Shown in pieces: positions 16,678-43,118 of a stretch of 64,000 nucleotides of DNA. A program made the position numbers and the translations under genes. The notes under the pieces are model-generated. The model was not told where the DNA came from, searched no databases, and saw only the letters and a list, made by a program, of their open reading frames with translations. The DNA is taken from assembly GCA_963696385.1 (NCBI GenBank), contig CAVOKF010000003.1:1-64000 (forward strand), given 5' to 3'. The stretch comes from an uncultured delta proteobacterium. GTDB lineage: Bacteria > Myxococcota_A > Polyangia > Polyangiales > Polyangiaceae. Position 1 is the first letter of the stretch, and every line of letters begins with the position of its first letter.

Positions 16678-17141
16678 GCCTAAAGCATACTCTGAGTAAT
16701 ACTTTGGCGCCAGAGCCCTCGACCGTCGTCTCCATGCGATCTCGCGTGTCGCCAATGGGTTGACCGCGGTCACCACGCGATCGATGAAGCGTCGACTCCA
16801 CGACGCCCCGCTCGCTCGCGAAATCGGCGGCCGGTCGACGACTGGGCCTCCACGCCGCCACGAGTCGTTGCCCCTGCTCCCAAGTCCGCCGCGATGTTCC
16901 CGTCTTCGTGTGTCATGGCTGGGCGAGTACGGCGCCGAAGCGGGCAGCGTCATGACGCGGTCGGCCGAACGCCTACCTGCAACGAGCATTGAAACAAGGA
17001 CACCCGCGATTGACTATCGAAGCCAGCGCCCCTAGGTTCAAGGCTCCGGCGATGTCAAACGACGGCGCGGTCTTACTTCCCGTCGGCCACCGCTGCTCCA
17101 CCGTTGCGCTCTTGGACGCGTGCGGTCTGAGCTCCAAGACA

Positions 17142-20116: not shown

Positions 20117-20119
20117 CCT

Positions 20120-20430
20120 CCTGACCTACGACTTCATCGTTGTTGGTGCCGGATTCTTTGGCGCTGTCTTTGCTCGCGAAGCAAAGGATGCCGGAAGGAG
20201 CGTGCTCGTGCTCGAGAAGCGCAAGCACATTGGCGGCAACTGCTACGACTTCGCCTTCGAGGACAGCGGGATCACTCGAGCTCCTGGCGAGATATCAAGC
20301 GCTCGCGCGCGACCAGAGCCATGTGATCTTTGGCGGCAGGCTCGCAGAGTACAAGTATTACGACATGGACGATGTTATGGCGCTGGCGCTCGGCGCGGCC
20401 AGAAGAGCGCTCGCACAATGGGACGGCTGA
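20120..20430 (+). pseudogene. glf: UDP-galactopyranose mutase with large internal deletion
   Basis: YDFIVVGAGFFGAVFA..EKRKHIGGNCYD joined to FGGRLAEYKYYDMD. Confidence 0.85.
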
Positions 20431-20512
20431 CCCTAGCGCATCGGCAGTTGCTTGTGGCGGATAACTGGAGCGCGCGACATTGCGTCAATTCGCTGAGCGC
20501 GACCGGATGACG

Positions 20513-20654: not shown

Positions 20655-21314
20655 CTACAGGAGGACTTTGCCGCTCGGGCAGCTTGCGCATTGGTCGTTG
20701 CTCGGACCTACGCATGTTGCACAACTCGCGTCGCAGGGCCCGCATACTGTATCGCTACTGGAGGTACAGGCCGTCACGGTGTACTCGTTACTGGCGCAGA
20801 GCGAGCAACCTTCGGCGTGGCCAGTGAAGGAGAAGTTCGTGTCAGTCGGGTCGGTAAACGTCCAGACTTGCCAGGAGGAACAGTCGGCCGCGTTGGGCGC
20901 CGCGGGTCCGTAGGACGCGATGGTGCCGGACGACGGGCTGATGCCCGTGGGAGACACGCTGTCGATGACCGCATCGAATGGGGACAACGTGGCCGACGTG
21001 AGATTGACCCCCTGAACATTGCCTGTTAGCTGATGCGTGCCGACATTGTACGTGACCGTGCCTGAGCACGTGTGGAAGAAGACGTCCCCGCTGGTCTCGC
21101 CGTACGGAAGCTGCACTTGCAGCGGGTAGTCGCCCGACGCCCGAAGCGTGACTACGGTCATCGTCCCCTGTTCGACGTCAATGCTTCCCATGAAGCGAAG
21201 GAGCGCGGGACGGGATCCGTCGGGCGCTCCGATTGCCGCAGGAGTCTCGAGGGGACCGGAGCATGCTGCGACCGCCGCTACACTAATTCCAGAGACGAAT
21301 CGACGGTAACGCAT
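20655..21314 (-). CDS. lipoprotein with Cys-rich TNFR/furin-like repeats, probably truncated
   Basis: VAAC lipobox; C-terminal CSLC..Y..ACTSSSDTVCGPCDASCATCVGP..DQCASC. Confidence 0.6.
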   Translation of the reverse strand: MRYRRFVSGISVAAVAACSGPLETPAAIGAPDGSRPALLRFMGSIDVEQGTMTVVTLRASGDYPLQVQLPYGETSGDVFFHTCSGTVTYNVGTHQLTGNVQGVNLTSATLSPFDAVIDSVSPTGISPSSGTIASYGPAAPNAADCSSWQVWTFTDPTDTNFSFTGHAEGCSLCASNEYTVTACTSSSDTVCGPCDASCATCVGPSNDQCASCPSGKVLL

Positions 21315-21547
21315 CAGTTACGAGGGTCATGATATCAGATTCCGCTGGTCTCCGCTCGCGCTACAGCAAGCCTCTCGCTTGTGTCCGCTGTGCGGCCATG
21401 AAATGGGGCCCGCTTGATGGACGGCACTTACTTCTGCAGGCCTGCAGAAATAGTTGACGTCGATCACCCGCTCTCCCGCGCCTCTCCACGCGGCATTGCG
21501 TAGCGCGCAAGCCCACTCCTGCGGGCTGCCGTCCCCAAGGGGGGGCG

Positions 21548-22288
21548 TCATCTTCGGTACCGCGATTCTGGAACCTCGTATTCGTAGAGATTCTCCGGAA
21601 AATCACTGAAGCAGTACGCTTTGGGGTGCGCCGAGCACACATAAAGCTCGGCGGCCATTCGATCATCTCGGTGGGCTTGCCAGTAGGCGTAACCGTTCTG
21701 CAATTTGCGAATGTATTCGCTCGTGGCCCACCAGAAGTTGCCGCCGTAGTGTGTGTGGATGTCGTCGAGCTCGACGCCGCACGTCTCGTGCTCCGTAAGG
21801 GCATTGACGCAGTCTCGCCAGCGCTCCAGGTTGAAGTACTCCATGTACAACCGCCACGCGTTGGTGGCCGGATTTGAGCAAGACGCGCCCTTTGTGTGAA
21901 AATAGAAGCACAAGAACGGCTCAGCGCGCGCCAGTGCCTCCTGCGACAGTCTCGCCAGAGTCGGGTATTCGAAGTCGCCCGGATTGTCAGTGACAAATAT
22001 ATCGAATTTGGGGTCGTCGAGGATCGGAAGGGGGAGTGCGCGGCTATGGCCTTTGCCGCCGACGAAACCGACGACGATTCTTTCGCACGCGTCGCGCAGG
22101 CCGCACGCGCGCAGCTTTGCGTATTGCTCGCCGGCGATCCGCGACCAGTCGCCGATGACGCCGATGTGCCAGAAGCCGACAATCTTCTTGGTAGGGTGCA
22201 GGCGCACGACTGGCTTCTCCCAGCTAGTCACGCACGAGTCCGCGCCCAGCGGCCTCTTCGAACGTGATGAGCTGGGCCCAGTCGTCAT
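21548..22288 (-). CDS. putative glycosyltransferase-like protein (true start may be ~22210)
   Basis: EYPTL, YFHTKG, WR.YMEYF, HYGGNFWWATSEYI motifs; coupled to GT60 gene. Confidence 0.55.
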   Translation of the reverse strand: MTTGPSSSRSKRPLGADSCVTSWEKPVVRLHPTKKIVGFWHIGVIGDWSRIAGEQYAKLRACGLRDACERIVVGFVGGKGHSRALPLPILDDPKFDIFVTDNPGDFEYPTLARLSQEALARAEPFLCFYFHTKGASCSNPATNAWRLYMEYFNLERWRDCVNALTEHETCGVELDDIHTHYGGNFWWATSEYIRKLQNGYAYWQAHRDDRMAAELYVCSAHPKAYCFSDFPENLYEYEVPESRYRR

Positions 22289-23237
22289 CAGAGTGAATCG
22301 TCACCGGATCGGGATTCTTGCCGGTGAACACATCGGGATGCGCGCGCTTGCGAGTAAAGTCGAAGCCCGCGTAGGTCTCGTAGTCGCGCAGCGTGCGCTC
22401 GTGGCCGAGACAATACGGACCCAGTGTGTGCCCTTCGGCGGTGTAAACGAGTCGGCGCAGGCGATCGAGCGCGATGGCGTTGTGCCGCCTAATGACCTCT
22501 TCGCCGTGTTCCCAGTGTCGTCGCGGCGGTGCGTGACGATAGTACATGTGCCACGCGACCACCTCCGTCGGCAAAAAGAGGTCGTACCCCCACGTGTAGC
22601 TCCGCACGGTGACGCTGAACTCTTCGCCCCAATAGTAATGATCCGGGTCCTGCGGCACTTCGACGTTCCACTGGCCGCGCGTGAAGGCGAAGTTTCCGTT
22701 CACGAAGCGGGTGCGCCCCGGCTTCTGCTCGTTTGGATCACCGAAGTTGAACCATGGGGCCCACCCGCCGCCCTCGGACCATTCGCTGACGCGCGTCGTC
22801 GGGACGCCCATCTGAAAAGCGCGCTGGAGGTTGCCGGTGTCGTCGTAATAGAAGAGCGGCGAGTTCATGGACAGGATGGGCTTTTCGGCGGGCATCGACT
22901 CGAGCATCTCGATGAGGCGCGCGTCCCAGTCGGGCTCGAACTTCATGTGCGAGTCGACTTGCAGCGTGTAGGCCTCGCCGCGCCACAGCGACTGAGCCAA
23001 GTTGCGCGCCCAAGGGCCGCCCTGACTTTCTCGCACGCTGCGATCGAGGAAACGAAAGCGCGGGTCTTCGCGGAATCGACCGAGATCAGTGGACTCGTGT
23101 GGATCGAATTGCCAGCAGACGCCAAAGCGAAGCGCGTCCGGGAAGCGCGACATCTCTAGACAATCGTCGAGCGTACGCGGCAGTTCGGGGTCCGCGTAGG
23201 AGGCAATCGCCACGAAGACTCGCTGGTCCCTTTTCAC
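22224..23237 (-). CDS. GT60 GlcNAc transferase (Skp1-hydroxyproline Gnt1-like)
   Basis: VFVAIASYAD, RFGVCWQ, ARNLAQSLWRGEAYTLQVDSH, EVP.DP..WGEE, TWGYDLF.P. Confidence 0.85.
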   Translation of the reverse strand: MKRDQRVFVAIASYADPELPRTLDDCLEMSRFPDALRFGVCWQFDPHESTDLGRFREDPRFRFLDRSVRESQGGPWARNLAQSLWRGEAYTLQVDSHMKFEPDWDARLIEMLESMPAEKPILSMNSPLFYYDDTGNLQRAFQMGVPTTRVSEWSEGGGWAPWFNFGDPNEQKPGRTRFVNGNFAFTRGQWNVEVPQDPDHYYWGEEFSVTVRSYTWGYDLFLPTEVVAWHMYYRHAPPRRHWEHGEEVIRRHNAIALDRLRRLVYTAEGHTLGPYCLGHERTLRDYETYAGFDFTRKRAHPDVFTGKNPDPVTIHSDDDWAQLITFEEAAGRGLVRD

Positions 23238-23434
23238 CGTACGCTTTCAGGTCTTTGTCCAGCAACTGACATTTCGAGGGTAGACCGCGCTCTGCGCGAG
23301 TTCCAGGCCCAAGCACGGAGCACACGCGACCGAAGCGGCTCGTCGAAGCGGACCGTGCCGGCCGCGGCGCCAGTCCGCGAACACGATAAAAGAGTCTGCG
23401 ACCGCGGAACAGAAATGGGAGTAACGTAGCTCCC

Positions 23435-23899
23435 GTGACCGAGGGCAAGAGAACCATAGAAGAGCTGATCGCCGAAATCGAGGCCCTGAAGAGGCAACTC
23501 GAAGACCGCGACGCGAAAAGTGACACGCCCTTCTCACGCCGCGACCTCGCCAAGTGGATCGCACCCGTAGTCTTGACGCTGCCCGTCGTGCAGGTTGCGG
23601 CTGGGCTATCGGTCACGCTGGCAGGCGCTAAGGAGGCGGCCGCACAGGAGGGGGGGCAGTGCGTCCCCGCTCCGACCGCGTCGCCGACGTTCAAGCCAAC
23701 CGCGTCGCCGACGTTCAAGCCAACCGCGTCGCCGACCACCACCAAGAAGCCAGCACCGACGTTCAAGCCAACCGTCGCGCCGGTTCTGGGCACGGCGAGC
23801 GGCCCGAATTGCAGCCCTAGCCCGAGTGGCCTCGTCGTCCTCGGCAGCGCTCGCGCCCTTTCGGGCGTGAACTGGCTGGTCGTCGCACGCGCGGCGTGA
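23435..23899 (+). CDS. putative substrate/precursor: SRR..W.APVV leader plus Pro/Thr repeats
   Basis: SRRDLAKWIAPVVLTL, EAAA|Q, repeated PTASPTFK, hydrophobic C-terminus. Confidence 0.7.
   Translation: MTEGKRTIEELIAEIEALKRQLEDRDAKSDTPFSRRDLAKWIAPVVLTLPVVQVAAGLSVTLAGAKEAAAQEGGQCVPAPTASPTFKPTASPTFKPTASPTTTKKPAPTFKPTVAPVLGTASGPNCSPSPSGLVVLGSARALSGVNWLVVARAA
23672..23773 (+). repeat. 24-bp coding tandem repeat (PTASPTFK)
   Basis: CCRACCGCGTCGCCGACGTTCAAG x2 plus partial copies. Confidence 0.9.
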
Positions 23900-23915
23900 G
23901 CCTCGCGCCGGAACG

Positions 23916-25241
23916 TTGGCATGTCGGATGAGCACGACAAACGACCGCGGCCCGTCTTCGCTCAAGCACTCGGTGCTGCCGAAGTCGAAGCCGGGATTTT
24001 CCGCGCATCCGGTTGCAAACGAACTCGTTCTCTTGTCGCCCGACGGTGAAGTCACGCATGCGCTGAACGAGACTGCCGCGGCGGTCTGGGAGCTGTGCGA
24101 TGGCAATCACACACCGCTCGACATGCTCGAGGAGTTGCGGTCGCAGTACGACGGACGGGACGTGCACATCCTCGGCGACATCACTGCCGCGGTCCTGCGG
24201 TTTCAGCATCTAGGTTTGATCGAGGTGGCGACGCCTTCCGGCGACGAGGAGGTAACGTTTGGAGGGGGGCTCGCCAGCGATCGGCCGCGCGCGCGCTTCG
24301 TCTTCGGTGTGGAAGACAAGCCGTACTTTCACTGGCAGCTGGGAATCCTGTTCGAGTCGCTCGTTGGCCAGCTCAGGGCCGGTTGGGACATCACGCTCGT
24401 GGTGTGCAACGACCATGCAAGGCTCTCGCCCGAGCTTGCTCGCCTCGTGACCACTCACGGGCTGCGGGTGATCACCGGACGGAACCATGCTCACAGCCAC
24501 AAGATCGACTTCTCGTCTCACGACGGCGGCTACGTCGCTCTTAACCGCGTCGAGGCGCTCAGAGCGATCGCGTCCCACGTCGATCCGGAAGACGTCATAT
24601 GCCTGATGGACACCGACGTGTTCCTTTATGGCGAGCTCAACGCCGATCTGTTCCCGCGCGGAAACGCGATGGCGGCGGACACGATCATGAGCGACCCCCT
24701 GTTTTTGGGCGGCGGCTCGACGGAAAAGGGCATCGACCTGCAGAAAGTTTTGGCCGCGATCGGCGTGAGCACCGAACTCAAGCGCGGCGCGGTCACCGTG
24801 TTCATGACCGGCGCGAACGCAACGAACGAAAAGGTAATCAGAGACTGCTTCCGCTTCGCACAGATCATTTTTCTGCTCGGCAAAACGAACGGTCTGCCCG
24901 ACCATAACGTGTGGATGTCGGAGATGGCCTGCTTCGCGATGGCGTTCACCGCCAACGGAATCGACTTCGATCTGCTCCAGCACCCGCAGTTCATCACGCC
25001 GCTGCCGCAAGCGCAGTCGGTAGCCGAGGGCACGTTCTTTCACTACTACTGCGACGCGAACGACGGCCACGGAGGGCCGTTCTTCGGGTCGGCGTGGAAC
25101 AAGCAACTTTTCAACGATCGCAATTTCCTCGCGGAGAACCTCGAGAGTTTCCGCATCTCGGCAAAGACCGAGATCGAGCGCCGCTTTTTCGATCTGGCCA
25201 TCCGTGCCAGGAGAAGGCTGCTTGGGCCGCCCGCGACTTGA
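23916..25241 (+). CDS. PqqD/RRE fused to GT96/GT95-like glycosyltransferase
   Basis: LNETAAAVWELCDG RRE; PYFHWQ, YVALNR, LMDTD (DxD), WMSEM..F, FFHY. Confidence 0.7.
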   Translation: MACRMSTTNDRGPSSLKHSVLPKSKPGFSAHPVANELVLLSPDGEVTHALNETAAAVWELCDGNHTPLDMLEELRSQYDGRDVHILGDITAAVLRFQHLGLIEVATPSGDEEVTFGGGLASDRPRARFVFGVEDKPYFHWQLGILFESLVGQLRAGWDITLVVCNDHARLSPELARLVTTHGLRVITGRNHAHSHKIDFSSHDGGYVALNRVEALRAIASHVDPEDVICLMDTDVFLYGELNADLFPRGNAMAADTIMSDPLFLGGGSTEKGIDLQKVLAAIGVSTELKRGAVTVFMTGANATNEKVIRDCFRFAQIIFLLGKTNGLPDHNVWMSEMACFAMAFTANGIDFDLLQHPQFITPLPQAQSVAEGTFFHYYCDANDGHGGPFFGSAWNKQLFNDRNFLAENLESFRISAKTEIERRFFDLAIRARRRLLGPPAT

Positions 25242-25276
25242 TTCGCCCCAAACGGGTGACGGGGAAGGAGCAGGCA

Positions 25277-25897
25277 ATGATTCCGGAGCTCGAGCCGCCG
25301 GAATACTTGCGCCAAAAGAGCCTGCGGAACGCCGAGAAGAGCCCGTCTCTCGGACTCGGATTCAAGAAGGCGCGGCTCGAGCGGCAAGTGTACGAGCGAC
25401 TCCTCGCGCACTTTCGCAACAACATCGCACGCTTTGAGGTCGAGGCGCCCGAAGACGAAATTCGCACCGCCAAGAAGAACATGATCCCGGCGCTCTTGTT
25501 CGAGGATCCGACTTTCAACGAGCGCTTCGTCAGCGAGCTCAAGCCGCTGCATGAAATCTGGGCGAAAACACCGCTCCGGATCTCCGCCTGCTACGGGATT
25601 CGCGCGTACCAGTCCGGCACGTTCCTCTACAATCACGTCGACCGGAAGCCGCACATTGTAAGCTCGACGATTTGCATCGATCACGCGCTCGACTCGCGCT
25701 GGCCGCTGCACATCGAGAGCATCGACGGCACCGTGCACCAGATCGACATGGATCCGGGCGAGTACATTTCGTACGAGGGCGCACGTCTCATGCACGGTCG
25801 CCCCTACCCGCTCGACGGAGAGTTTTACGCCGGCATCTTCGTTCACTATTACCCGGCGGATATGCTCCGAAAAGACGAAGAAGAGGGGCGTGAGTGA
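25277..25897 (+). CDS. 2OG-Fe(II) oxygenase (putative prolyl hydroxylase)
   Basis: YGIRAY..G..L..HVD, WPL, HGRP, FVHY. Confidence 0.75.
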   Translation: MIPELEPPEYLRQKSLRNAEKSPSLGLGFKKARLERQVYERLLAHFRNNIARFEVEAPEDEIRTAKKNMIPALLFEDPTFNERFVSELKPLHEIWAKTPLRISACYGIRAYQSGTFLYNHVDRKPHIVSSTICIDHALDSRWPLHIESIDGTVHQIDMDPGEYISYEGARLMHGRPYPLDGEFYAGIFVHYYPADMLRKDEEEGRE

Positions 25898-27915
25898 TGC
25901 GCTCTCTTTATTATACGAATTATCAATCGGGCGTGTCGGGACTCTCGAATGGCATCATGTCGATCGAGATCGGCGTGATTCTCGCGCACCTGACGAATCG
26001 ACTGCTCGTTCTCGACGGCAACATTTCGCCGCCGGCGAATCTGGTCACCTACGACAGCCGCGTGAACAACGAAGTCGGAAGCCGCGTGACCGATCTCGTC
26101 GAGATTCCAGTGCCGTGGATTGAGGCGAGCGAGGTTGATCTGAGCGAACTCGAGAGTGCTGAGCTCACCAGTCTCGACTACTGGGACTTCGCCTTTTACT
26201 TTCCGAAAACGCTCGACGTGTCGTCGCACGACGCGCGCGCGTTCGCTCGCGATCGCACCCAGTGGGTGACGGTAACTGGCGAACACGACCGCGTGCCGGT
26301 GCTTAGGCTGTCCGAAGAGCCGTTGACTCCGGATCCGGTCACGGGCCGCGCGCGCAATAGGCGCGCGAACCTCGGCTTCTACAGCTACCAATTTTATCTC
26401 GATCAGGCGACGCGTCGTTCGGTCTACCGCATCCTCGAGCGAATGCAGGCAAAAAAGCCGTACGCGGAGCTGGCGGCCCGCGTGGCGCGGGACCTCCACA
26501 GCTTCAACGCAGTGCATTTCCGGCGCGGTGATTTCAAGGTCACGTACGGCGTGACGACCCTCGACCGAAAGCCCTCCGAGGCGATCGACGCCATGGCCCC
26601 TCTGTTCAGTCGCAAGGAGCCGCTGGTCATCCTCACCGACGAACGGGAGGATCCATTCTTCCGTGAGATCAAGCTCGCCTACCCCGAGCACCTCTTCATC
26701 GATTGGCACATCCTTGATCACTACGGCGCGGAGTTCGCAAAACTCGAACGCACCGATAGTTTAAGCCTCGCGTACCTATCTCAGCTCGTGGCGGCAGAGT
26801 CGAAAGAGTTTCTCGGCACGATGACCAGCACCTTCACGGCGCTCATTCAGCGCTATCGTGGCAATCGGGGTAAGCGCGAGGTCTTTCGCTACCTGTGGAA
26901 CGAGCTGCCCGATTCAGGCGCGAAGTTCGAGCGAGGCAGGCATGCCATCAGCGAATGCATCCCGCTCGATTGCGGTCGGATGGTCGACCTGTTCCAGGGG
27001 CCGTACTCATGGAACCGCGTGAGCCAGCAGCTGAACCCCGCGTGGATGCGCGAATGGCCGGAGAGCTTTCTTTTGCCGGAGGTCCTGCAGACCGGCTCGC
27101 TCGTCAAGGAAAAGGAGACGGTGACGGTTCCGACTTCGCTCGAGATCTCCGGGTTCATCAAAGAGCCGGTGCTTTATGTCGGGTTCGAGAACCTTCAGGT
27201 GGCGATCCGGTGCGAGGACGGGGCGCTTTTCAAGCGGCTTGCGACGGAACTCGGCGTCGACATCGCGACGCGAGCGAGAAACGTGATCGCGAACTTCGAC
27301 ATCACCCAGGGGGCGAGCTACGGCATCACGCAGCGCGGGCACGCAAAAGGAACGTTGTGCGACAAGAAGGAGCTTCCGATAGAGCTCAAGCGTCAGATCG
27401 CTACGCTACTTGCCGGCGTGCGCCACAACTATTCGTGGCTGACGTCCGCGGCATTTGCGAAGGACGGACGTGGGCTAGTGATCGCTGGCGATGTCGACGA
27501 CGCGAACGATCAGTTCGTCTGCCTGCTCGAGGCGCGAGGTTGGCGGTCGATCGATCGCAAGCTGATCGCGATTCGCGCCGGAGATCTCATGGTCATACCG
27601 TTTGGTGCCCAGACGCAGGGGGAGGGGTCTGCGTCGCAGGTACGCTTTGCCGTTCCCCTCGATCGCCTGGTGATTGCAAAGAAGGCGCCTCTCTACGCGC
27701 GGGATACGCGAATTCTTCCGATGTCGCCAGCGCATGGGGTCGCGGCTCTCGTCGGTCTGTCGCTCGATTTCAGCGTCGAGCGAGAGCGCGCGGTCGAAAA
27801 ACTTTGCCGTCTCATCGAGCAGAGGCCGGCGGCACTGCTTCACTATAGCCGCCCGGACGAGGCGGCCGAAGTCATCTCGCGCTTCGCCCATGCGGGCGGG
27901 GAGGACATCGAGTAA
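25894..27915 (+). CDS. O-fucosyltransferase-family protein with degenerate C-terminal HprK-like domain
   Basis: GLSN, FNAVHFRRGDF, ILTDE, FLGTMTSTFT; C-terminal SAAFAKDGRGLVIAG lacks GKS/T. Confidence 0.72.
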   Translation: MMRSLYYTNYQSGVSGLSNGIMSIEIGVILAHLTNRLLVLDGNISPPANLVTYDSRVNNEVGSRVTDLVEIPVPWIEASEVDLSELESAELTSLDYWDFAFYFPKTLDVSSHDARAFARDRTQWVTVTGEHDRVPVLRLSEEPLTPDPVTGRARNRRANLGFYSYQFYLDQATRRSVYRILERMQAKKPYAELAARVARDLHSFNAVHFRRGDFKVTYGVTTLDRKPSEAIDAMAPLFSRKEPLVILTDEREDPFFREIKLAYPEHLFIDWHILDHYGAEFAKLERTDSLSLAYLSQLVAAESKEFLGTMTSTFTALIQRYRGNRGKREVFRYLWNELPDSGAKFERGRHAISECIPLDCGRMVDLFQGPYSWNRVSQQLNPAWMREWPESFLLPEVLQTGSLVKEKETVTVPTSLEISGFIKEPVLYVGFENLQVAIRCEDGALFKRLATELGVDIATRARNVIANFDITQGASYGITQRGHAKGTLCDKKELPIELKRQIATLLAGVRHNYSWLTSAAFAKDGRGLVIAGDVDDANDQFVCLLEARGWRSIDRKLIAIRAGDLMVIPFGAQTQGEGSASQVRFAVPLDRLVIAKKAPLYARDTRILPMSPAHGVAALVGLSLDFSVERERAVEKLCRLIEQRPAALLHYSRPDEAAEVISRFAHAGGEDIE

Positions 27916-28916
27916 TGGCACCTCGAGACATCAAGCTCACCATCCGGTTGATCAACGGCGACTGCCACGAAGTTCGCTTGGGCGAAGATGCGCCAGAGCT
28001 CGCGACGCTGTTCGGTGCGCTCGCCTCGCCCTCGCCGGAGCACAGCGCGGAGAACCAATTCGTCGAGCTTCCGCTCGAGGGCGGCCGCGTCGCATGGTCG
28101 TTTCGGACGTCGAACGTCGTCTCGATCTTGAGCGACCCGCCGGTTGTGCTGAATCCGGAGCAGCTGAAACGCCCCGCGCAAACCGAGGCGCGCGCGGACG
28201 GCTCTGCAAAGGACGCCGCCGGGGTCGTGAATCAAACCGCGTACACACGCCGCCCTCGTTTTGTCGTCGTCGACGATTTCTTGGCCGCCGAGGAGCACGA
28301 TGAGCTGCTCGCCTACGCGCTGGTCTCCGAAGATCAGTTTCAGCCGGGTACCGTCTCCTCCTATGAGCCCGGAGTTCGGCAGAATCAAGCCATCATGAAT
28401 TTCGGTGAATCGGTTCACAGCCGATTCCTTGAAAATCGGTTGCTCATTTGGTTCCCACTCCTCGCGAAAACCTTGGGCATCCCAATGTTTCCGCTCTCCG
28501 CCTTCGAGTCGCAGCTCACCGCGGCGCGCGACGGCTACTACTTCAAAACGCATTCGGACGAATCACCTGACATTCCGCGCGTGCTCACTTGCATCTACTA
28601 CCTGCATCGCGAGCCGCGCGGTTTTGCCGGGGGCGAGCTGCGGCTGTACGACTGCATTGGAGATGGCGACGAGAGAAGGGCGGCCGAGACGTTCGCCACG
28701 GTGCACCCGACAGCCAACCGGCTCGTCGTGTTCGCGTCGAATGAGCTCCATGAGGCTCGGCCGGTTCGCTGTCCATCGGTGGAGTTCGCCGACAGCCGCT
28801 TTGCCGTCACCATGTGGATGCACCGCGCGAAAGAGTTCGATCCCCTCGCGCGGTTCGGTTGGGGCCATTTCTCTTGTGGCGTCCTGCCGCCACAGCTGCG
28901 GAAGCCGAAGTCGTGA
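27915..28916 (+). CDS. 2OG-Fe(II) oxygenase, prolyl 4-hydroxylase-like
   Basis: ESQLT, FKTHSD, RVLTCIYYL, GGELRLYD, NRLVVF..HE, SRFAVTMW. Confidence 0.82.
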   Translation: MAPRDIKLTIRLINGDCHEVRLGEDAPELATLFGALASPSPEHSAENQFVELPLEGGRVAWSFRTSNVVSILSDPPVVLNPEQLKRPAQTEARADGSAKDAAGVVNQTAYTRRPRFVVVDDFLAAEEHDELLAYALVSEDQFQPGTVSSYEPGVRQNQAIMNFGESVHSRFLENRLLIWFPLLAKTLGIPMFPLSAFESQLTAARDGYYFKTHSDESPDIPRVLTCIYYLHREPRGFAGGELRLYDCIGDGDERRAAETFATVHPTANRLVVFASNELHEARPVRCPSVEFADSRFAVTMWMHRAKEFDPLARFGWGHFSCGVLPPQLRKPKS

Positions 28917-30055
28917 TCACCACTGTCTTCTGTAACTCCGACGAGCCGGAGTGGCGCGCCGAGCTGCTCGAGTATTCCTGGGGCCGGGCGCGGCAGCCGG
29001 GCGAACTCGTTCGGTTGGTCGCAGAGTCGCCTTCGCCGCCGAGTCATCGCCATGCGCGCGTCGTACCCACGACGGCGTGGTCTCCTCATCCGTACACGGG
29101 CGACGTCTACGCGCCGTATCAAAGAGCGGGTGGGGTCCTCGAATGGCTCTTCACCGAGCAGCCCGACGGAACAATTCTCCTTGTCGAGCCCACCACGGTC
29201 TTTCGCGCCGCGGTGACCGACGAAGTACGGCCGGGCGGAGCGAAGGCGACGGCACGGTCCGTCTCGGATGGTTGGGATGGCCGGTCGCAAGGCAAGGGTC
29301 CGTTTGGTCTCGGGCCAACTTTTGCGTTCTTGGAGAAATACTGCATCGATCGCGACCTCGAACTCGACGCAGTGAAACTTCCGCTGCTCATTCACTCGAA
29401 AGACCTGCGCAAAATCGCCGCGCGCTGGCTCGAGCTCATGAGCCTCATTCGCGCCGAGGCGGCGCGCGCACAAGACCGCCCGCTGAAAGATGCCGACGAG
29501 GTGGCCTACCTGATCGCTGCGGCCGAAGCGCACGTACCGCACAGCGTCGCAGAGCTCGGCATCGGCACCGAAGTCGTGAGCGGTGCGGCACCACTTATCG
29601 ACTACCGGCGCCCGATCGAATATGCGGACCGCGAATCTGGCGAGGGCGGAAACCTTTGGGAGTGGAGCAAGTATGACGCCTGGCGTCCGGTGCAGCCGGC
29701 GTCCGCGAAGACGGAAACGGGCCGGGAGGTGCTCACCATCCTAAGCGACCTGATCGAGCGTCGCGCACGCGGACACGAGCTCGACTTTCTTCGTCCCCGC
29801 AGGAACAACGGTGTCCGCGAAGGCAAGATTCTTGGCTCGTTATTTCTCGAGATTCCTGGCCGCGCAGACACGGTCTCGCTCAACACCGCCGGCGCCGCCA
29901 TCTGGGAGGCCTGTGACGGAGCGCGCACCATCGCCGACATTCACCGAACGCTCGAGTGGCGCTTCGAGATGCCGCCTGGGGCGTTGCAAGACGACGTCGA
30001 GGTGGTGATTCGGCGCCTCGAAAAGATCGACGCGCTTCGGTTGGAGCCGGTCTAG
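28913..30055 (+). CDS. GT96/GT95-like domain fused to C-terminal PqqD/RRE
   Basis: YSW..ARQPGELVRL, WSPHPYTGDVY, GVLEWL, IHSKDLRKIAARWL; LNTAGAAIWEACDG. Confidence 0.72.
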   Translation: MITTVFCNSDEPEWRAELLEYSWGRARQPGELVRLVAESPSPPSHRHARVVPTTAWSPHPYTGDVYAPYQRAGGVLEWLFTEQPDGTILLVEPTTVFRAAVTDEVRPGGAKATARSVSDGWDGRSQGKGPFGLGPTFAFLEKYCIDRDLELDAVKLPLLIHSKDLRKIAARWLELMSLIRAEAARAQDRPLKDADEVAYLIAAAEAHVPHSVAELGIGTEVVSGAAPLIDYRRPIEYADRESGEGGNLWEWSKYDAWRPVQPASAKTETGREVLTILSDLIERRARGHELDFLRPRRNNGVREGKILGSLFLEIPGRADTVSLNTAGAAIWEACDGARTIADIHRTLEWRFEMPPGALQDDVEVVIRRLEKIDALRLEPV

Positions 30056-30057
30056 AT

Positions 30058-30966
30058 ATGAATGCGGCCGACAGCCAGATTTTCATCTCGATCGCGTCGT
30101 ACCGCGACATGTATCTGCCGTTCACTATCGACTCGGCGATTTCGAATGCGACGCATCCTCGTCGTCTGACATTCGGTATCTGCTGGCAAGCCGACGAGAC
30201 CGAAGAGCTGGATCGTTTCATCGGCGATCGATTTCGCATTCGCAAATATCCCTATCAAGCGAGTCTCGGCTACGGATGGGCGCGTCACGAAGTGCAAAAG
30301 CTCTATAACGGCGAGCCGTATCATCTGCTTATCGACTCGCACTCGGCATTCGCGCCCGGTTGGGACGAAAACCTGATCGCCCAGCTCGAGAGCAAGCCAA
30401 GCAAGAAGCCTCTCCTCACGACCAGCTCCCCGCCGTTTACCTTCGATGGAGGTAAAAGGGTCGTGTTCCCCTGGAATGGAACGGAAGAGGAGGGGGTGCC
30501 GCTGATGCGCTGCGAGCTCGTCCGCCCGGAAGGATGGCTTGACATTCAGATGTCGACGGAGCGCAAGACCGAGCGTCACCAAAAGACGCCGTTCAGCTGT
30601 TGCAATTTCGTCTTTACGCACGGCGTGTGGATCGAGGAGGTGCCGGAGGATCCGGCGATGATCAACGCGTGCCACGAGGGACCGCTCTCCATCCGCACAT
30701 TCACGCACGGCTATGACATGTTCTTGCCCGACGAGATTCAGGTGTGGCACCTCGACTATGGCAACTATCCGGGCGGCTATCGTCACAAGGTGTGGGAGAC
30801 GAAGAGCGGCAAGTGGCAGAGTGAACACACTGACAAGATGATCCAGCGGATGCAAACGCTGGTCTTCGGCACGGGCGATATGAAAACCCTCGGTCGCTAT
30901 GGGCCAGGCACAGAGCGCAGCGTCCGCGAGTGGGGCGAGCTCGCGGGCCTCGATCTTACGCCGTAG
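30058..30966 (+). CDS. second GT60 GlcNAc transferase
   Basis: IFISIASYRD, FGICWQ, WAR..QKLYNGEPY.LLIDSH, EVPEDP, THGYDMFLP. Confidence 0.83.
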   Translation: MNAADSQIFISIASYRDMYLPFTIDSAISNATHPRRLTFGICWQADETEELDRFIGDRFRIRKYPYQASLGYGWARHEVQKLYNGEPYHLLIDSHSAFAPGWDENLIAQLESKPSKKPLLTTSSPPFTFDGGKRVVFPWNGTEEEGVPLMRCELVRPEGWLDIQMSTERKTERHQKTPFSCCNFVFTHGVWIEEVPEDPAMINACHEGPLSIRTFTHGYDMFLPDEIQVWHLDYGNYPGGYRHKVWETKSGKWQSEHTDKMIQRMQTLVFGTGDMKTLGRYGPGTERSVREWGELAGLDLTP

Positions 30967-31933
30967 AGCGATCGAGTTTCGCTGACTTCACCTGTGACTC
31001 GATCCAGCGATAAGTGGGCAGAAGCCCCTCGCGCAGGTTGCAATGCGGCGCCCAGCCGAGTCGCGCGCGAATGAGGTGATTGTTGGACGTGCGCCCGCGC
31101 ACGCCGAGCGGCCCGTCGATGTGGCGAATCGAAAGTCTCTTGCCGGCGATGTCCATGATGAGTCGCACCAGCTGATGGATCGAAAGCATCTGGTCCGAGC
31201 CGACGTTGAGGGGCTCTTCGCAGTCAGATCGCATCAGACGCAGGACCCCCTCGAGGCACTCATCGACGTAGAGAAAGGAGCGCGTCTGCTGGCCGTCGCC
31301 CCAGATTTCGATCTCGTCGTTCGCCATAGCCACTTTGCGGCACAGCGCGGCCGGCGCCTTCTCGCGGCCATCGTTCCAAGATCCTTCGGGGCCGAAGACG
31401 TTGTGCAGCCGCGCGATGCGCGTCGCGAGGCCATAGTTGCGCGCGAAGGCTAGATAGAGCCGTTCGCTGAAGAGTTTTTCCCAGCCGTACTCGCTGTCGG
31501 GCGCCGCGGGATAGACGCTGTCTTCGCTGCAGTGGGGATTCAAGGGATCGAGCTGGTTGCGTTCGGGGTAGACGCACGCGGTCGAGGAGTAGAATATGCG
31601 GCCAATCGAAGCCTGCGTGCATACGCGTAGCAGGTTCAGGTTGATGAGCGCGGAGTTGTGCATGATGTCGGCGTCGTTCTTGCCGCTTGAGATGTAGCCA
31701 GCTCCGCCCATGTCGGCGGCGAGCTGGTAGACCTCGTCGAAGCCGCCCGAACACGCATCGGCACAAGTCTTGGAATCGTGCAGATCGCCGACGATGAATT
31801 CGTCCGCCGTCGTCGGGCGATAGCGGGGTCGCTGTAGGTCGACGGCGCGCACCCAAAAGTTCTCGCGCTTGAGGCGATTCACCAGGTGGCTGCCGATGAA
31901 CCCGCCGCCGCCGAGGACGAGCGCGCGCTTCAT
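30956..31933 (-). CDS. GDP-mannose 3,5-epimerase-like NAD-dependent epimerase
   Basis: GGGGFIG, QLAADMGGAGYI, PDSEYGWEKL, REKAPAALCRKV, WGDGQQTRSFLY. Confidence 0.85.
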   Translation of the reverse strand: MKRALVLGGGGFIGSHLVNRLKRENFWVRAVDLQRPRYRPTTADEFIVGDLHDSKTCADACSGGFDEVYQLAADMGGAGYISSGKNDADIMHNSALINLNLLRVCTQASIGRIFYSSTACVYPERNQLDPLNPHCSEDSVYPAAPDSEYGWEKLFSERLYLAFARNYGLATRIARLHNVFGPEGSWNDGREKAPAALCRKVAMANDEIEIWGDGQQTRSFLYVDECLEGVLRLMRSDCEEPLNVGSDQMLSIHQLVRLIMDIAGKRLSIRHIDGPLGVRGRTSNNHLIRARLGWAPHCNLREGLLPTYRWIESQVKSAKLDRSTA

Positions 31934-32752
31934 GCCTCGCCGCCACTGAAGAACCGTCGGTGGAAGTTCTCCATGTCCCACATCCGCTGCGAGTGAAAAT
32001 GGAAATGGAAATGGTCCCCCTCGGGAACTTGCCGGAATTCCGGCTTGAGCACGAAAATCCATGCTGCTGCCGCCGTATGGCTGGATGAACGTTTGGTTCT
32101 GCGTGGGCCGCTCCGCTCTGTGAATGCGCCCCGCGATCACGTCGATCGCCTCGCCCCCATATCTGTTGGCGATGAAGTGACCAACCGCCACGTCGTCGGG
32201 CATGGTCTTGGGATAGGTGGACAGGATGTGTTCCCGGCAGTTCGCCAGGTCCGCCACGATATCCCTTGAGATGAGAAATCCGGACCCCGACACGAACGGG
32301 AATCCGCTCGCGCCGTCGACCATCACGGCGCCCTGATAGACCCCCGTGCGAGGGAGGGTCTTCGCGTACTTCTCGAGTCCGGCTACATCCACGTAGCTCG
32401 ATGCACAAACCGTGTAGACGAAATCGTAGTCCCGCATGAGGTGCCGAAATGCGACCAAGCGTTTTTGCAAAACGCAGTTCGCCTGGTCGGAAAATACGTC
32501 CGCGGCGCCACACAAAATAATGTCTCCGGAGACGCAGAATTCACCCTCGGCGAGCTCTGGCTTCTCCGTCGAAATGAGCGCGTCGACCTCGACGAGGCTC
32601 GGACCGGCTCCGTGGGCGCCGTAAACATAGAAAATGTCGGCGTGGGAGGGGACTCTTGCCCACGTCGCGCGGATCGTTTGGATGCAGCGCTGATAGTGCG
32701 TGAGCCTACATCCGAGAACCAAGATTGCGATCTTCACGTCGGGCGTGGACAT
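31930..32752 (-). CDS. GT31/fringe-like glycosyltransferase; frameshift near 32050
   Basis: IRATW, LQK..AF, YDFVY, SSYVD, FVSGSGFLISRD, PDDVAVG; the alternate frame ends at TGA overlapping the epimerase ATG. Confidence 0.6.
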
Positions 32753-32895
32753 GGCCTCCGCTTTTTCGACTGTCCGTATACCACAGTCTTGTCGTGACAA
32801 AATCCGCGTCGCGGCGGTCGGCGGCTGGGTGTGCAGCAAGTGGCCGTCCTGGCCTCCGAGACAGACCGCAAACGGCTTGCGGATCGCTCATTCCG

Positions 32896-33879
32896 TCATC
32901 GGGTCGGGCGCGGCGGGCCGTCGACGCGGGGCGCGAGGCACTCGCGCCGCACGAGCGCCGAGGCTTGGCCGACGTCCGCGAGCCAGTCGGATCCCATGCG
33001 AACTTCGTAGGTGCACGCTCGGTCGACGAGCGCCCCGATGAGCCGCAGCTGCTCCGCGGACCGCGCGACCCCGTCGGCCGCAACGAGCGCGCACGAAGCC
33101 AGCGCCCTGCCGAAGGCCTCCGCGGGCCCCGTCGTGACGACGCGTGTGTGCGGCTCGACGGTCACGCACGGAAAGAGGACGATGTCGGGGGTCGCCATCT
33201 CCGGCGCGAGATTCCAGGGGAGCGCCTCGAGCGGGACTTCGCCCTTTCCGCTCGCATCGGGCTCGCCGCGAGTCAGGGCGGGGAATGCGGCGGCCGTCGC
33301 GTCGCCGAGATGAAACGGACGGGGAAAGGCGAGGATCGTCCCGCGCCCGGCACGCTCGGTGAGAAACAGCGCGTCATCGCCGAGGTAGCGCGCGCCCTCG
33401 TCGAGGAGCGAGAGGGTCACCGTCGACTTGCCCGCCCCCGAATCGCCGAGGACGAGCACCCGCAGGCCGTCCCCTCGTATCAGGGCGCCGCCGTGGAGGT
33501 GAAAGATCCCCTGGTGTCGGAGGGCAATCGAGAGAGCGATGAAGAGCGTCGTGCCGGCGAAGCCCCGGGGGTCGAGCCGGGCGATGTCTCCCTCGACGTC
33601 GATGCGCCGGCCGTCGTGCGCGACGAGGACGCGCGCACCCGGCGTGACGAGCAGGAGAGCGCCTCTTCTCTGCAGGGCGCGCACGTTGCCCTGGAAGAAC
33701 GACGGGCGAAACCCGCTTGCGTCGAGCACGCCTCGGTCTGGCTCGATCTGGATCGTCACGTCGGCTGCGCCGTTCGCCGTGGACGCGGCAAAGCCCCCCA
33801 GGAGCCGCGCGACGGGATCGCGCGGCAACGCGGGCGCGCGCCACTCGACGCGCAGTCCGTAGACGTCGACCGCGGGCAC
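32896..33879 (-). CDS. HPr kinase-related (RiPP-associated) kinase
   Basis: HLHGGAL, GDSGAGKST, YLGDD. Confidence 0.8.
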   Translation of the reverse strand: MPAVDVYGLRVEWRAPALPRDPVARLLGGFAASTANGAADVTIQIEPDRGVLDASGFRPSFFQGNVRALQRRGALLLVTPGARVLVAHDGRRIDVEGDIARLDPRGFAGTTLFIALSIALRHQGIFHLHGGALIRGDGLRVLVLGDSGAGKSTVTLSLLDEGARYLGDDALFLTERAGRGTILAFPRPFHLGDATAAAFPALTRGEPDASGKGEVPLEALPWNLAPEMATPDIVLFPCVTVEPHTRVVTTGPAEAFGRALASCALVAADGVARSAEQLRLIGALVDRACTYEVRMGSDWLADVGQASALVRRECLAPRVDGPPRPTR

Positions 33880-33897
33880 AGTGCGCCTCGCTCGCTC

Positions 33898-34173
33898 TCA
33901 GTCGCTCGTCACCAGTCCCTCGACAAGCATCTCCCGGAGCACCGGTTCGAGGTCGCGCCGCACGGTGTCGCGATCGACGCGGAAGCGTTGCGCGAGACGT
34001 TCGGCGAGAACCTGGCGCGTCGTGCCCGTCTGGGCGCTGAGGGCGCTCCAAGCGGCCACGCCGGTCGCGTTGATATCGTAATAGAACTTGGTGCCGAGAT
34101 GCAGGAGGACACCCGTGCCGTCCCGGAGCTCGGTCAGGATCACCTCGGGGCTGGCGCGATAGCTGGGCTCCAT
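33898..34173 (-). CDS. PqqD/RRE family protein (lasso B1-like)
   Basis: GVLLHL..YYDINATG..AW, LAQRFRVD..RRDL..GLV. Confidence 0.85.
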   Translation of the reverse strand: MEPSYRASPEVILTELRDGTGVLLHLGTKFYYDINATGVAAWSALSAQTGTTRQVLAERLAQRFRVDRDTVRRDLEPVLREMLVEGLVTSD

Positions 34174-34246
34174 GGCGCCCGAACCTAACACGCGGGCGGG
34201 GCGTTCTCGGTCGCGAACGAACGCCCTCGAGGCAACCGAAGCGAGC

Positions 34247-34624
34247 TCACGCGAAGCGAAACGTGACAACGAGTCGCGGGTCGGGGTCTTCGCCTACCGG
34301 CGCCCCGCCAATCTCGACCCACGCGTGGCCGGCTCCCGGGTCGTCCTGACGGACCCCCATGACGAACTCTGCGGGCAGACCCGCGCTCCGGAGCGCGACC
34401 CAGCGCGCGATCGCGCGATACAAGCACGTGTCGTGAGCGCCGAGGCACCGAGCCAGGCGCTCGGAGCGCGCCAGCGCCTGACCGGCGCGCGCTCGCGTGA
34501 CCCGGCCGGCGCGCGGAGTGATCGTGCGGAAGAGTGCGGGCAGCGACAGCGCGCGCATCCCGAACGGTAAGAGGCATCGCATCGATACGAGGTGAGCGTC
34601 GAGGACGAGGCCGCGCACGTTCAC
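34247..34624 (-). CDS. lasso peptide B2-type leader peptidase
   Basis: CLYRAIA..LR..G..FVMGVR..GHAWVE; GTG overlaps radical SAM stop. Confidence 0.85.
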   Translation of the reverse strand: MNVRGLVLDAHLVSMRCLLPFGMRALSLPALFRTITPRAGRVTRARAGQALARSERLARCLGAHDTCLYRAIARWVALRSAGLPAEFVMGVRQDDPGAGHAWVEIGGAPVGEDPDPRLVVTFRFA

Positions 34625-35709: not shown

Positions 35710-35729
35710 GAGGAGCTCCTGACGCGTGC

Positions 35730-41869: not shown

Positions 41870-42003
41870 TCCAGTTTCTCCCGAATCGCAAACGCGAGTG
41901 CCGCTTAATTTGATCTGCCCCGACCATGGTTGGGGCGTGGCGACCTTTTTCCTTTCAGGCAGAGGGGCGGCCGCTCGCGAGTACGGCCTACACGGGCACC
42001 GTG

Positions 42004-42794: not shown

Positions 42795-42976
42795 TCGAGA
42801 GGCTTCGCCCCGCGCGAGCTGATGCGCACGTTCGGGAACACGAAGTGGCCGTTCTCGCGTTGGAGCTGTTCCCGGCTCTTCTCGCGGCAGGCGAGCGCGC
42901 GAGCGTCCTCCTCGCGAGAACGCTGCTTCTCGCGGGCACGCTCCTTCGGGTCGAAATGCTCGATCTCCTTGGCCAT
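42791..42976 (-). CDS. small charged protein, putative antitoxin
   Basis: 61 aa; its TGA overlaps the GTG of the nucleotidyltransferase. Confidence 0.55.
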   Translation of the reverse strand: MAKEIEHFDPKERAREKQRSREEDARALACREKSREQLQRENGHFVFPNVRISSRGAKPLE

Positions 42977-43118
42977 CCGGTAAAAATACGGCTCTCCTGG
43001 CCGTCGCGCAAACGGGGGCCCGTGTCGAGCCACGCACGCAACCTGTGACGTCCCTGCGCGCGCTTCAGCTTGAACGGCAAGCGCACGAAGTTTTCGCCGC
43101 TCGACCCCAGAGATCCCC

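Follow-up and report, generated by a model that had tools for sequence, protein, structure and literature searches.

Can a bacterium make hydroxyproline- (Hyp-) or threonine-linked glycoproteins in the style of plants and protists, and by what logic would its enzymes be brought to a dedicated substrate? The question is raised by a cassette of genes at positions 21548-32752 of a 64-kb stretch of DNA (contig CAVOKF010000003.1, positions 1 to 64,000, assembly GCA_963696385.1; hereafter the window) from an uncultured delta proteobacterium of the family Polyangiaceae. A preliminary description of this region had proposed an assembly line following the logic of RiPPs (peptides made by the ribosome and modified after translation), in which the prolines of a Pro/Thr-rich substrate are hydroxylated and O-glycans are built on it. 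Gene content, domain families, folds, synteny, a conserved leader and the repeat statistics of the substrate were all observed directly and, as far as sequence, fold and synteny carry, they support that proposal. In our view a single Pro/Thr-repeat protein, dedicated to the cassette, is probably made and heavily O-glycosylated by RiPP-like logic, with a chemistry that we infer from these observations. Genes are lettered A-K in this analysis, and all coordinates are positions in the window.

A, 21548..22288, minus strand (likely start GTG at 22207): DUF8361-like accessory protein, named after its nearest ESM Atlas clusters
B, 22224..23237, minus strand: GT60-family glycosyltransferase (polypeptide/Hyp alpha-GlcNAc-transferase family; PF11397, 1.7e-44)
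C, 23435..23899, plus strand, GTG start: Pro/Thr-repeat protein of 154 residues, the candidate precursor or substrate (family alignment)
D, 23916 (or ATG 23928)..25241, plus strand: N-terminal RiPP recognition element (RRE) and GT-A glycosyltransferase (GT) domain (PqqD, 2.6e-11)
E, 25277..25897, plus strand: 2-oxoglutarate (2OG)/Fe(II) oxygenase of 206 residues with a PHD/P4H-like fold (AlphaFold model and Foldseek)
F, 25894..27915, plus strand: O-FucT-like GT-B domain and C-terminal HprK-like domain (sub-threshold PF10250)
G, 27915..28916, plus strand: P4H-type 2OG/Fe(II) oxygenase (2OG-FeII_Oxy_3, PF13640, 3.3e-17)
H, 28910..30055, plus strand: GT-A domain of the hydroxyproline O-arabinosyltransferase (HPAT) family and C-terminal RRE (PqqD, 3.1e-10 to 3.6e-10; PF23452 matches in orthologues)
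I, 30058..30966, plus strand: GT60-family glycosyltransferase, last gene of the operon (PF11397, 6.5e-43)
J, 30956..31933, minus strand: GDP-mannose 3,5-epimerase, which makes GDP-L-galactose/GDP-L-gulose (phmmer, 2.5e-95 to 2c59)
K, 31934..32752, minus strand: weakly GT31-like (Fringe/Galactosyl_T), frameshifted (sub-threshold Pfam matches)

Seven plus-strand open reading frames (ORFs), C to I, are packed within 23435-30966, separated in order by +16, +35, -4, -1, -7 and +2 nt, while A and B are divergent from this operon and J and K convergent with it. Because the gaps and overlaps are small (from +35 nt between D and E to -7 nt between G and H), the operon is regarded as tightly coupled, as the preliminary description had stated. 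Its identification of the Pro/Thr-repeat protein (C), the RRE-bearing GT (D), the second oxygenase (G) and the GT60 protein (I) is likewise borne out by Pfam and family alignment, that of the first oxygenase (E) by fold and invariant residues, and that of a second, divergent GT60 protein (B) by its PF11397 match. The sequence GGGAG lies 12 nt before the GTG start of C. In a scan of 21300-33000, promoter-like sites numbered 2 against 2.0 in shuffled sequences and terminator-like sites 12 against 9.1, and an NCBIfam scan of the window proteins added nothing specific.

Conservation of the cassette across phyla

Is this arrangement confined to one genome? Public data hold more than 120 protein clusters 46-98% identical to D, annotated merely as PqqD or hypothetical proteins. 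Among 25 genomes of the same genus, the window's own included, full-length D occurs in two (G000 and G003); other matches in the genus cover the RRE only, one of them in an unpublished genome (G010). Scanning one genome per species gave 40 loci, with D orthologues 36-68% identical, from Polyangiaceae and other Myxococcota, Candidatus Nitrotoga, Binatia, Gammaproteobacteria, Acidobacteriota and Nitrospirales, and further from Alphaproteobacteria (Devosia, Oricola, Roseitalea), Thermodesulfobacteriota and one spirochaete. Two carriers are cultured isolates and make experiments feasible: Luminiphilus syltensis NOR5-1B, with locus L035, and Elongatibacter sediminis CH-27, with locus L024.

The content of the loci was established by tblastn with the window proteins only, and frequencies refer to the 31 long loci with at least 7.2 kb after the start of D. 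The gene order C-D-E-F-G-H-I recurs across phyla. E, F and GT60 genes are each present in 30 of the long loci, H in 28 and G in 27, and all five occur together in 27 of the 31. Since synteny is kept in 40 loci across phyla, the observation is more than chance. Among the flanking genes, K was found in 8, A in 5 and the large upstream gene Q, described below, in 7 of the 31 long loci (coverage at least 30% for A and Q), and J homologues of at least 45% identity in 13 of all 40. Reduced versions also exist. For example, L048 and L049 comprise D, E, the N-terminal domain of F, a stand-alone RRE and a precursor, with a GT60 gene in L049 as well, and L043 retains D, a precursor fragment and GT60.

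Three of the four long loci that lack G also lack H. Moreover, in a Myxococcota-type locus (L011:2977-5768) a further hydroxylase gene, G', and a further HPAT-RRE gene, H', come immediately after a precursor, about 4 kb upstream of a full D-I operon. This block and the joint losses, which come from few and related loci, hint that G and H may be coupled.

A repeat protein with a conserved leader

What would the enzymes act on? A strict scan for the leader motif described below found a C-type gene in 31 of the 40 loci and in the window and missed nine loci; a relaxed scan recovered five more (L022, L038, L048, L049 and L043, the last a fragment at a contig edge). Overall, the Pro/Thr-rich partner on which the preliminary description depended is kept, with a conserved leader, in 36 of 40 homologous clusters, and in 30 it is the same-strand gene immediately upstream of D. 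No precursor was found in the other four loci: in L025 and L031, D lies less than 250 nt from the contig end, L026 is a 5.6-kb contig and L037 a 21-kb locus. The 6.9-Mb genome of the window contains one C-type gene only, a single one of nine regular-expression matches being PT-rich. We are confident that C is the substrate of the cassette and, only slightly less firmly, we expect that it is glycosylated.

The alignment and statistics comprise 32 sequences, from the 31 loci of the strict scan and the window. In the window, C begins with an N-terminal helix, EELIAEIEALKRQLE, which is followed by S-R-R, W-I-A-P-V and a hydrophobic stretch. Across the family the leader has an N-terminal amphipathic helix of the form K-T-K-E-E-L-L-A-E-I-E-A-L-R, missing in the alphaproteobacterial clade, and an RR pair that is invariant (32/32) and appears as S/T-R-R in 30 of the 32. 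A W-x-[A/S]-P-V-[I/V]-L element with invariant W, P and V stands 5-9 residues after RR and precedes a hydrophobic stretch, and leaders have endings of the A-x-A kind, for instance AHA, AQA or AFA, the hydrophobic stretch and the endings having been judged by eye in the alignment.

Downstream of the leader the sequences diverge completely and the composition is kept (P 21%, T 20%, A 15%, S 10%), Pro being the commonest core residue. Thr follows at 425 of 658 core prolines (observed/expected 3.26), PT being the dominant dipeptide; SP and AP are also enriched ([A/S/T]-P) and PP is depleted (0.40). The spacing from one PT to the next is most often 4 residues in 24 of the 32 precursors. In the window this region carries repeats of the PTASPTFK type along with two Cys, its C-terminus is hydrophobic, and its match to the Pfam PT repeat (1.2e-3) is below the cut-off. 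As the cores are 39-251 residues long, the product would be better described as a secreted or anchored glycoprotein than as a small peptide.

The C-termini of the precursors differ between lineages. Those of Nitrotoga and Binatia have a hydrophobic anchor resembling a transmembrane segment with a charged (acidic) tail, and those of Myxococcota, the window included, a segment with two Cys and a hydrophobic tail. Nine gammaproteobacterial precursors (L024, L027, L028, L030, L032-L035 and L046) end in P-V-E-[L/I]-x-x-F-[E/D/K]-[V/I]-x without a transmembrane segment, those of L023 and L047 in A-L-F-[R/S]-F-D-D, and alphaproteobacterial precursors have no such element. The terminal motifs are possible sorting or docking signals, and to judge from sequence, anchors and motifs alike would suit a protein that is displayed or secreted better than a small peptide that diffuses away.

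The repeats could also be read as a multi-core RiPP precursor that is cut into short glycopeptides, for instance a signal, an antibiotic or a metal binder. Repeating tetrapeptide units, a conserved leader with a hypervariable core, the RREs discussed in the next section and an unrelated RiPP-like gene set next door all speak for this possibility. We nevertheless find it improbable, since the cores reach about 250 residues with no recognisable cleavage motifs between repeat units, the C-terminus of many precursors is either an anchor, hydrophobic and with a charged tail, or a conserved motif, and neither a conserved protease nor an ABC exporter is found among the tracked cassette genes, which are homologues of window genes.

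RRE domains and the leader

How might the enzymes recognise the leader? The RRE of D spans residues ~25-105, with the PqqD match at residues 36-102. Searched against PDB sequences, the D profile matches solely RRE proteins (TbiB1 at 1.4e-4, PqqD and TfuB1), and in an AlphaFold model of D (predicted local distance difference test, pLDDT, 73) this domain superposes by Foldseek on the leader-bound lasso B1 proteins TfuB1 (TMt 0.83) and TbiB1 (0.80). The RRE of H aligns to that of D with an hhalign probability of 98.6%. By eye the GT domains of D and H had also given the impression of paralogues; hhalign aligned the RRE parts only, and that relationship is unsupported. The GT-A domain of D finds WbbM as its best Foldseek match (6.4e-7), followed by glycogenin (GT8), the blood-group enzymes GTA/GTB and LgtC, at TMt ~0.4-0.47, and its D232-T-D234 motif is invariant in 13 D sequences.

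Counting all loci, the RRE is met with in four settings: as part of D, as part of H, as a stand-alone protein beside the precursor and as part of the precursor itself. This recurrence strengthens the RiPP logic that the preliminary description had proposed. Stand-alone PqqD genes lie beside the precursor at L012:1220-1594, L014:2688-3152, L048:4161-4409 and L049:14673-15002. In L038:16500-17312, on the minus strand, a PqqD domain (3.7e-6) stands ahead of the RR/hydrophobic segment and SPT repeats (PT, 3.7e-13). The cassette shares with RRE-dependent RiPPs an RRE within a tailoring enzyme and, in 36 of 40 loci, a precursor gene close by whose product has a conserved leader ahead of a variable core.

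On this evidence we favour, with some reserve, the view that the leader binds the RREs. When residues 20-112 of D (the RRE) were modelled together with residues 1-72 of C (the leader), the predicted complex scored 0.33 against 0.01 for the best control, and the runs agree in at least 83% of contacts with a partner pLDDT of at least 52. Of 157 solved complexes, 116 reach the benchmark mark for such scores, as do 2 of 215 mismatched pairs; it is reached at scores of 0.60 or lower by 18 of the 157 solved complexes and both of the passing mismatches; as solved RRE-leader complexes exist, the pass may reflect likeness only.

Glycosyltransferases and sugar supply

Which sugars could be attached? The GT60 proteins B and I reach 153 and 148 bits against PF11397 (cut-off 21) and carry a DSH motif ('LQVDSHMKF' in B, 'LLIDSHSAF' in I), the D-x-H of which we take to be the metal site. 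I gave no match against PDB sequences. The catalytic domain of H matches PF23452 (HPAT) in 11 of 13 orthologues, best 6.1e-15, and the catalytic part of H lies near HPAT clusters in the ESM Atlas (score 0.93), where one cluster near it is labelled 'PqqD family protein' and 55% of its members carry HPAT. The window copy of H itself gives no PF23452 match at E<=1. The preliminary description of H as a GT-RRE protein stands with regard to the RRE and is compatible with an HPAT-family GT, and a specific GT96 assignment did not emerge.

F consists of an O-FucT-like GT-B domain (residues ~1-395) and an HprK-like C-terminal domain (~430-673). Its motif H-x-R-R-G-D-F-K is invariant and is presumably the GDP-sugar-binding motif of O-FucT-type GT-Bs. 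The C-terminal domain matches Hpr_kinase_C in 2 of 13 orthologues, with a weak HprK_rel_A match at 605-663, and its Walker A motif (GSWGRGKST/GSWGSGKTT) is degenerate in the window copy, intact forms being confined to three alphaproteobacterial loci (L040, L041 and L045). In L037 (Nitrospirales), F is the GT domain only and a separate P-loop protein is encoded at 8730-9761, upstream of D. Phosphorylation of the precursor is possible in clades with an intact Walker A motif or a separate P-loop protein.

The preliminary description had placed a GT31-like gene and a GDP-mannose epimerase convergent to the operon. The second of these is secure: residues 6-320 of J align to 34-347 of the Arabidopsis enzyme GME (2c59) at 2.5e-95, identifying J as a GDP-mannose 3,5-epimerase, and its Pfam matches are to epimerase families of the short-chain dehydrogenase/reductase (SDR) type. 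GDP-L-galactose is the 6-hydroxy analogue of GDP-L-fucose, and would therefore be a natural candidate donor for F. K is weaker. Its matches to Fringe (1.9e-3 to 8e-3) and Galactosyl_T (3.5e-2) are sub-threshold, at 18.1 bits against a cut-off of 21, and K is not classed as GT31; one or both families are found at E<=1 in 5 of 8 members of the K family, again all sub-threshold. After '...SSMDF' the conserved C-terminus of K (VLKPEFRQVPEG...FHRRFF) runs on in another frame, and owing to this frameshift K and J read as one 627-residue ORF. At 32053 one base is absent from an RNA-library contig that stems from a close relative; the frameshift reflects either an indel of the assembly or a true pseudogene.

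The divergent gene A had been called GT-like, and this is unverified: A has no Pfam or NCBIfam match, and its nearest ESM Atlas clusters are DUF8361 (PF27674; score 0.98). Taken together, profile and fold checks leave the assignments of GTs and oxygenases standing, A being the exception and K weakly GT31-like. The Atlas clusters nearest to A and to residues 1-300 of H are dominated by Uroviricota (phage) records, and phages may carry related protein-glycosylation genes. By eye, no signal peptide or transmembrane segment was seen in B or D-I, and as these proteins use nucleotide sugars or 2OG, they are taken as cytoplasmic.

Glycosyltransferases near sugar genes may instead build a lipid- or polysaccharide-linked glycan (capsule, lipopolysaccharide or exopolysaccharide), with C as a membrane scaffold or regulator and the RREs tethering the enzymes. 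The region does contain general sugar genes, namely J, the GT-containing gene Q (1173 residues) and an SDR gene at 10728-11630, and the hydrophobic segment of C could be a membrane anchor. Against this, the Pfam matches of the scanned window flanks include no Wzx/Wzy, Wza, ABC polysaccharide-export protein or initiating phosphoglycosyl transferase (the flanks of other loci were compared with the window's own genes only), GT60, HPAT and O-FucT-like enzymes are protein-acceptor families, and the PT-repeat composition is conserved across phyla despite sequence divergence. We therefore regard a polysaccharide product as very improbable and a glycosylated C as the better account of these genes.

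Two oxygenases and their likely target

Is proline hydroxylated before the sugars are added? E has no Pfam family as the window protein, its orthologues gave chance-level Pfam matches only, and its profile returned no match against PDB sequences. Its AlphaFold model (pLDDT 86.5) finds the prolyl-4-hydroxylase of P. putida first by Foldseek (4iw3; 2.2e-8, TM score 0.60), followed by many HIF-PHD2 entries. Both oxygenases have the H-x-D...H iron triad and basic 2OG-binding residue of the double-stranded beta-helix fold: H120, D122, H173 and R175 are invariant in E, as are H213, D215, H279 and R295 in the alignment of G, which in addition carries a conserved N-terminal domain of ~80 residues of no recognised type. 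That E and G are duplicates is ruled out by an hhalign probability of 0.4%, and they represent two different oxygenase lineages.

A scheme in which Thr and Ser alone are glycosylated, still in the cytoplasm and by leader guidance of a dedicated substrate, would assign the oxygenases other roles, such as hydroxylation of Thr, Lys or Asp in C, action on a sugar or a nucleotide sugar, or a regulatory function. In the repeats, where PT dominates, Thr varies no more than Pro does, and the consulted part of PMC8724618 states that protist GT60 enzymes start mucin-type O-glycans on Ser/Thr besides modifying Skp1 Hyp. E is without a Pfam family, its TM scores are about 0.55-0.60, its Foldseek list also contains ALKBH5, AviO1 and OkaE, and it is likeness of fold and family that suggests Pro, rather than another residue, as the hydroxylation target; these points weigh against prolyl hydroxylation. 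On the other side, the best folds for E are prolyl hydroxylases, G belongs to a P4H-type Pfam family, Pro is the commonest core residue (21%), and an HPAT-family GT, named for its Hyp acceptor, is a core member of the cassette that tends to accompany G. A scheme restricted to Thr/Ser, and with it the other roles for the oxygenases, appears unlikely to us, although less so than the alternatives discussed above, and the evidence on the whole favours hydroxylation of prolines in C.

A leader that resembles an export signal

How would the product leave the cytoplasm? Read as sequence, the layout of RR, hydrophobic stretch and A-x-A is like that of a twin-arginine translocation (Tat) signal, since S/T-R-R, a moderately hydrophobic h-region and an A-x-A site are all present, and TatC is encoded in the genome of the window. 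Other observations are at odds with this interpretation. The RR pair lies 35-100 residues from the N-terminus (35 in the window, farther in most others), which is atypical for a cleaved Tat signal; in L038 it stands behind a folded PqqD domain; and no Pfam TAT_signal match was found in the C family at E<=10. In L048 and L049 a W-T-R-P-[I/L]-V element lies behind a separate RR and hydrophobic segment, an arrangement suggesting independent recognition of the W-x-x-P-V element. The RR/hydrophobic element could instead be a signal-anchor, or no more than the recognition site of the RREs. The A-x-A site, for its part, suggests cleavage by signal peptidase. We regard export through Tat as evenly balanced between these considerations.

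Three features go beyond the preliminary description, namely this Tat-like leader, the cores of 39-251 residues and the HprK-like domain in F, and the four RRE arrangements add to it as well.

A proposed pathway

From these results we infer the chemical steps, leader binding and export as follows. C would be translated with a long leader composed of the N-terminal helix, S/T-R-R, W-x-A-P-V and a hydrophobic stretch up to A-x-A. In the cytoplasm, the RREs of D and H would dock on this leader and hold the repeats near the catalytic domains, with the HprK-like domain of F and the N-terminal domain of G perhaps also serving as leader-docking modules. E (PHD-like) and G (P4H type) would then hydroxylate prolines of the x-P-T-x repeats, after which the soluble GTs would glycosylate Hyp and/or Thr/Ser. 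The GT60 proteins B and I probably add alpha-N-acetylglucosamine and so start glycans on Hyp and/or Thr, the HPAT-family protein H probably puts a sugar on Hyp, and glycan extension is the probable task of D, which is GT8/GT6-like. For the O-FucT-like F the probable donor is a GDP-L-sugar, in the simplest case GDP-L-galactose supplied by J, and K may act where it is intact. The glycoprotein would be exported by a route that accepts bulky cargo, for which RR, h-region and AxA point to Tat, and would then be set free by signal peptidase or remain anchored.

Several findings detract from this scheme. The hhalign alignment of D with H covers the RRE parts only, and the support that the complex prediction gives to docking of the leader on the D RRE is weak. 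The window's own H has no PF23452 match at E<=1, and its copy of K is frameshifted near 32053. F had been called O-FucT-like in the preliminary description, and all 13 of 13 orthologues indeed match PF10250, but every match is below the cut-off (best 1.4e-6; window F 2.6e-4, with 21.1 bits against 31.5), for which reason F is named O-FucT-like and not a member of the family. Finally, no conserved leader protease or exporter occurs among the tracked genes, which are homologues of window genes only.

Relation to known systems

The cassette would belong with leader-guided post-translational modification or cytoplasmic protein O-glycosylation, and four known systems offer comparisons.

RRE-dependent RiPPs of the lasso B1/PqqD type share with the cassette PqqD-type RREs on tailoring enzymes, the RRE of D being like TbiB1 and TfuB1, as well as a gene-linked precursor with conserved leader and variable core. 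The cassette differs in its tailoring enzymes, which are GT-A and GT-B glycosyltransferases and 2OG oxygenases, in its repeat core of 39-251 residues, in the absence of a dedicated protease among the tracked genes and in a leader that resembles an export signal. In the consulted part of a 2025 survey of RREs, fusions of RREs to PF00535 glycosyltransferases are reported (PMC12710340), and a search of it by terms found nothing resembling the cassette.

The Skp1 pathway of Dictyostelium and Toxoplasma, as given in the consulted part of PMC8724618, comprises PhyA, Gnt1/GT60 and GTs that act later, among them a GT8 resembling glycogenin. Common to both are enzymes that are soluble and taken as cytoplasmic, a PHD-type fold (E), GT60 proteins (B, I) and a glycogenin/GT8-like GT-A domain (D), whereas the cassette has a multi-site repeat substrate, RRE guidance, HPAT-family and O-FucT-like GTs and probable export.

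Plants O-arabinosylate Hyp (PMC8012813, consulted in part), and their hydroxyproline-rich glycoproteins (HRGPs) depend on P4H, HPAT/GT95 and GT31 enzymes. The P4H-type G, the HPAT family represented by H orthologues, the weakly GT31-like K and the plant-type GME J have counterparts there, while the cassette differs by soluble enzymes without Golgi anchors, by x-P-T-x in place of Ser-Hyp4 and by guidance through leader and RRE. Enrichment of [A/S/T]-P and depletion of PP resemble the non-contiguous Hyp motifs of arabinogalactan proteins.

The serine-rich repeat adhesins of Gram-positive bacteria are O-glycosylated in the cytoplasm by adjacent soluble GTs (GtfA/B and others), and their export by accessory Sec uses a route that accepts the glycosylated form and an unusually long N-terminal signal. 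The proposed pathway would work alike, and in function this system is probably the closest bacterial analogue; the cassette is distinguished from it by other GT families, by hydroxylases and RREs, by its occurrence in Gram-negative and other phyla, and in that no SecA2/SecY2 was seen in it.

The preliminary description knew of no characterised bacterial pathway with these parts, and our search agrees: in the full-text literature, outside of which subscription-only papers lie, no description of a bacterial cassette with PqqD, HPAT, GT60 and 2OG oxygenase was found, and no paper there pairs PqqD with HPAT. Bacteria may, on our reading, make plant- or protist-style Hyp/Thr-linked glycoproteins. 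If so, leader-guided biosynthesis would gain Pro hydroxylation and multi-sugar O-glycosylation and be extended from peptides to repeat proteins, and the products would be a bacterial equivalent of plant HRGPs and protist mucins. It would also raise the question whether a heavily glycosylated protein can exit the cytoplasm via Tat, and would provide soluble, leader-addressable GTs and hydroxylases of potential use in glyco-engineering. GT60, HPAT, P4H/PHD and GDP-mannose 3,5-epimerase are otherwise studied in eukaryotes, and the evolutionary origin of those plant and protist pathways would become testable. A more far-reaching idea, which we put forward tentatively and consider less probable than the pathway itself, is that of a mobile cassette of many phyla for eukaryote-style Hyp-/Thr-linked O-glycosylation, in which one segment serves both as RiPP leader and as Tat-type signal and which is a possible prokaryotic relative or source of the Skp1 and plant HRGP pathways. 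On that idea, Hyp glycosylation would be new to bacteria, and glycosyltransferases and hydroxylases guided by RREs would be the first of their kind.

Genomic context

The G+C content of the window is ~60-69%, with the cassette at the low end (0.60-0.64). A phage-type integrase lies downstream at 43119-44324, and an ADP-ribosylglycohydrolase (5e-68) is encoded in the same segment, 40814-44324. The lower G+C (18-32 kb), the patchy distribution in the genus and the integrase suggest a horizontally moving genomic island.

A separate RiPP-like set adjoins the cassette at 32896-36998, and no precursor was identified for it:

32896-33879, minus strand: HprK-like P-loop protein
33898-34269, minus strand: PqqD protein
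ending at 34247, minus strand: lasso-B2-like transglutaminase
34621-35709, minus strand: radical SAM/SPASM protein
35730-36998, plus strand: NTP_transf_5 protein

We weighed whether these genes belong to the system and decided against it, as the near-identical locus L010 is the only one where they are found with the cassette; among the neighbour genes of this set, M, N and O are each found in 1 of the 31 long loci and P in none.

On the other side of the cassette, Q (16989-20510, plus strand) encodes 1173 residues with a weak DUF1796 papain-like match, a Glyco_trans_1_2 domain (4e-16) and, at residues 1047-1091, a short FAD/NAD-binding N-terminal piece like that of UDP-galactopyranose mutase. 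Between Q and A, a minus-strand gene at 20655-21314 encodes 219 residues with a lipoprotein-like N-terminus (…AVAACSG), a Cys-rich C-terminus and a weak TNFR_c6 match (1.1e-4), and is kept only in L010. The SDR gene at 10728-11630 mentioned above lies further upstream.

Contigs 95-99% like the region occur in four peat metatranscriptome libraries from four studies, possibly of one campaign, and cover 28, 25, 21 and 22 of 30 bins. They are compatible with transcription in a close relative or with DNA carry-over.

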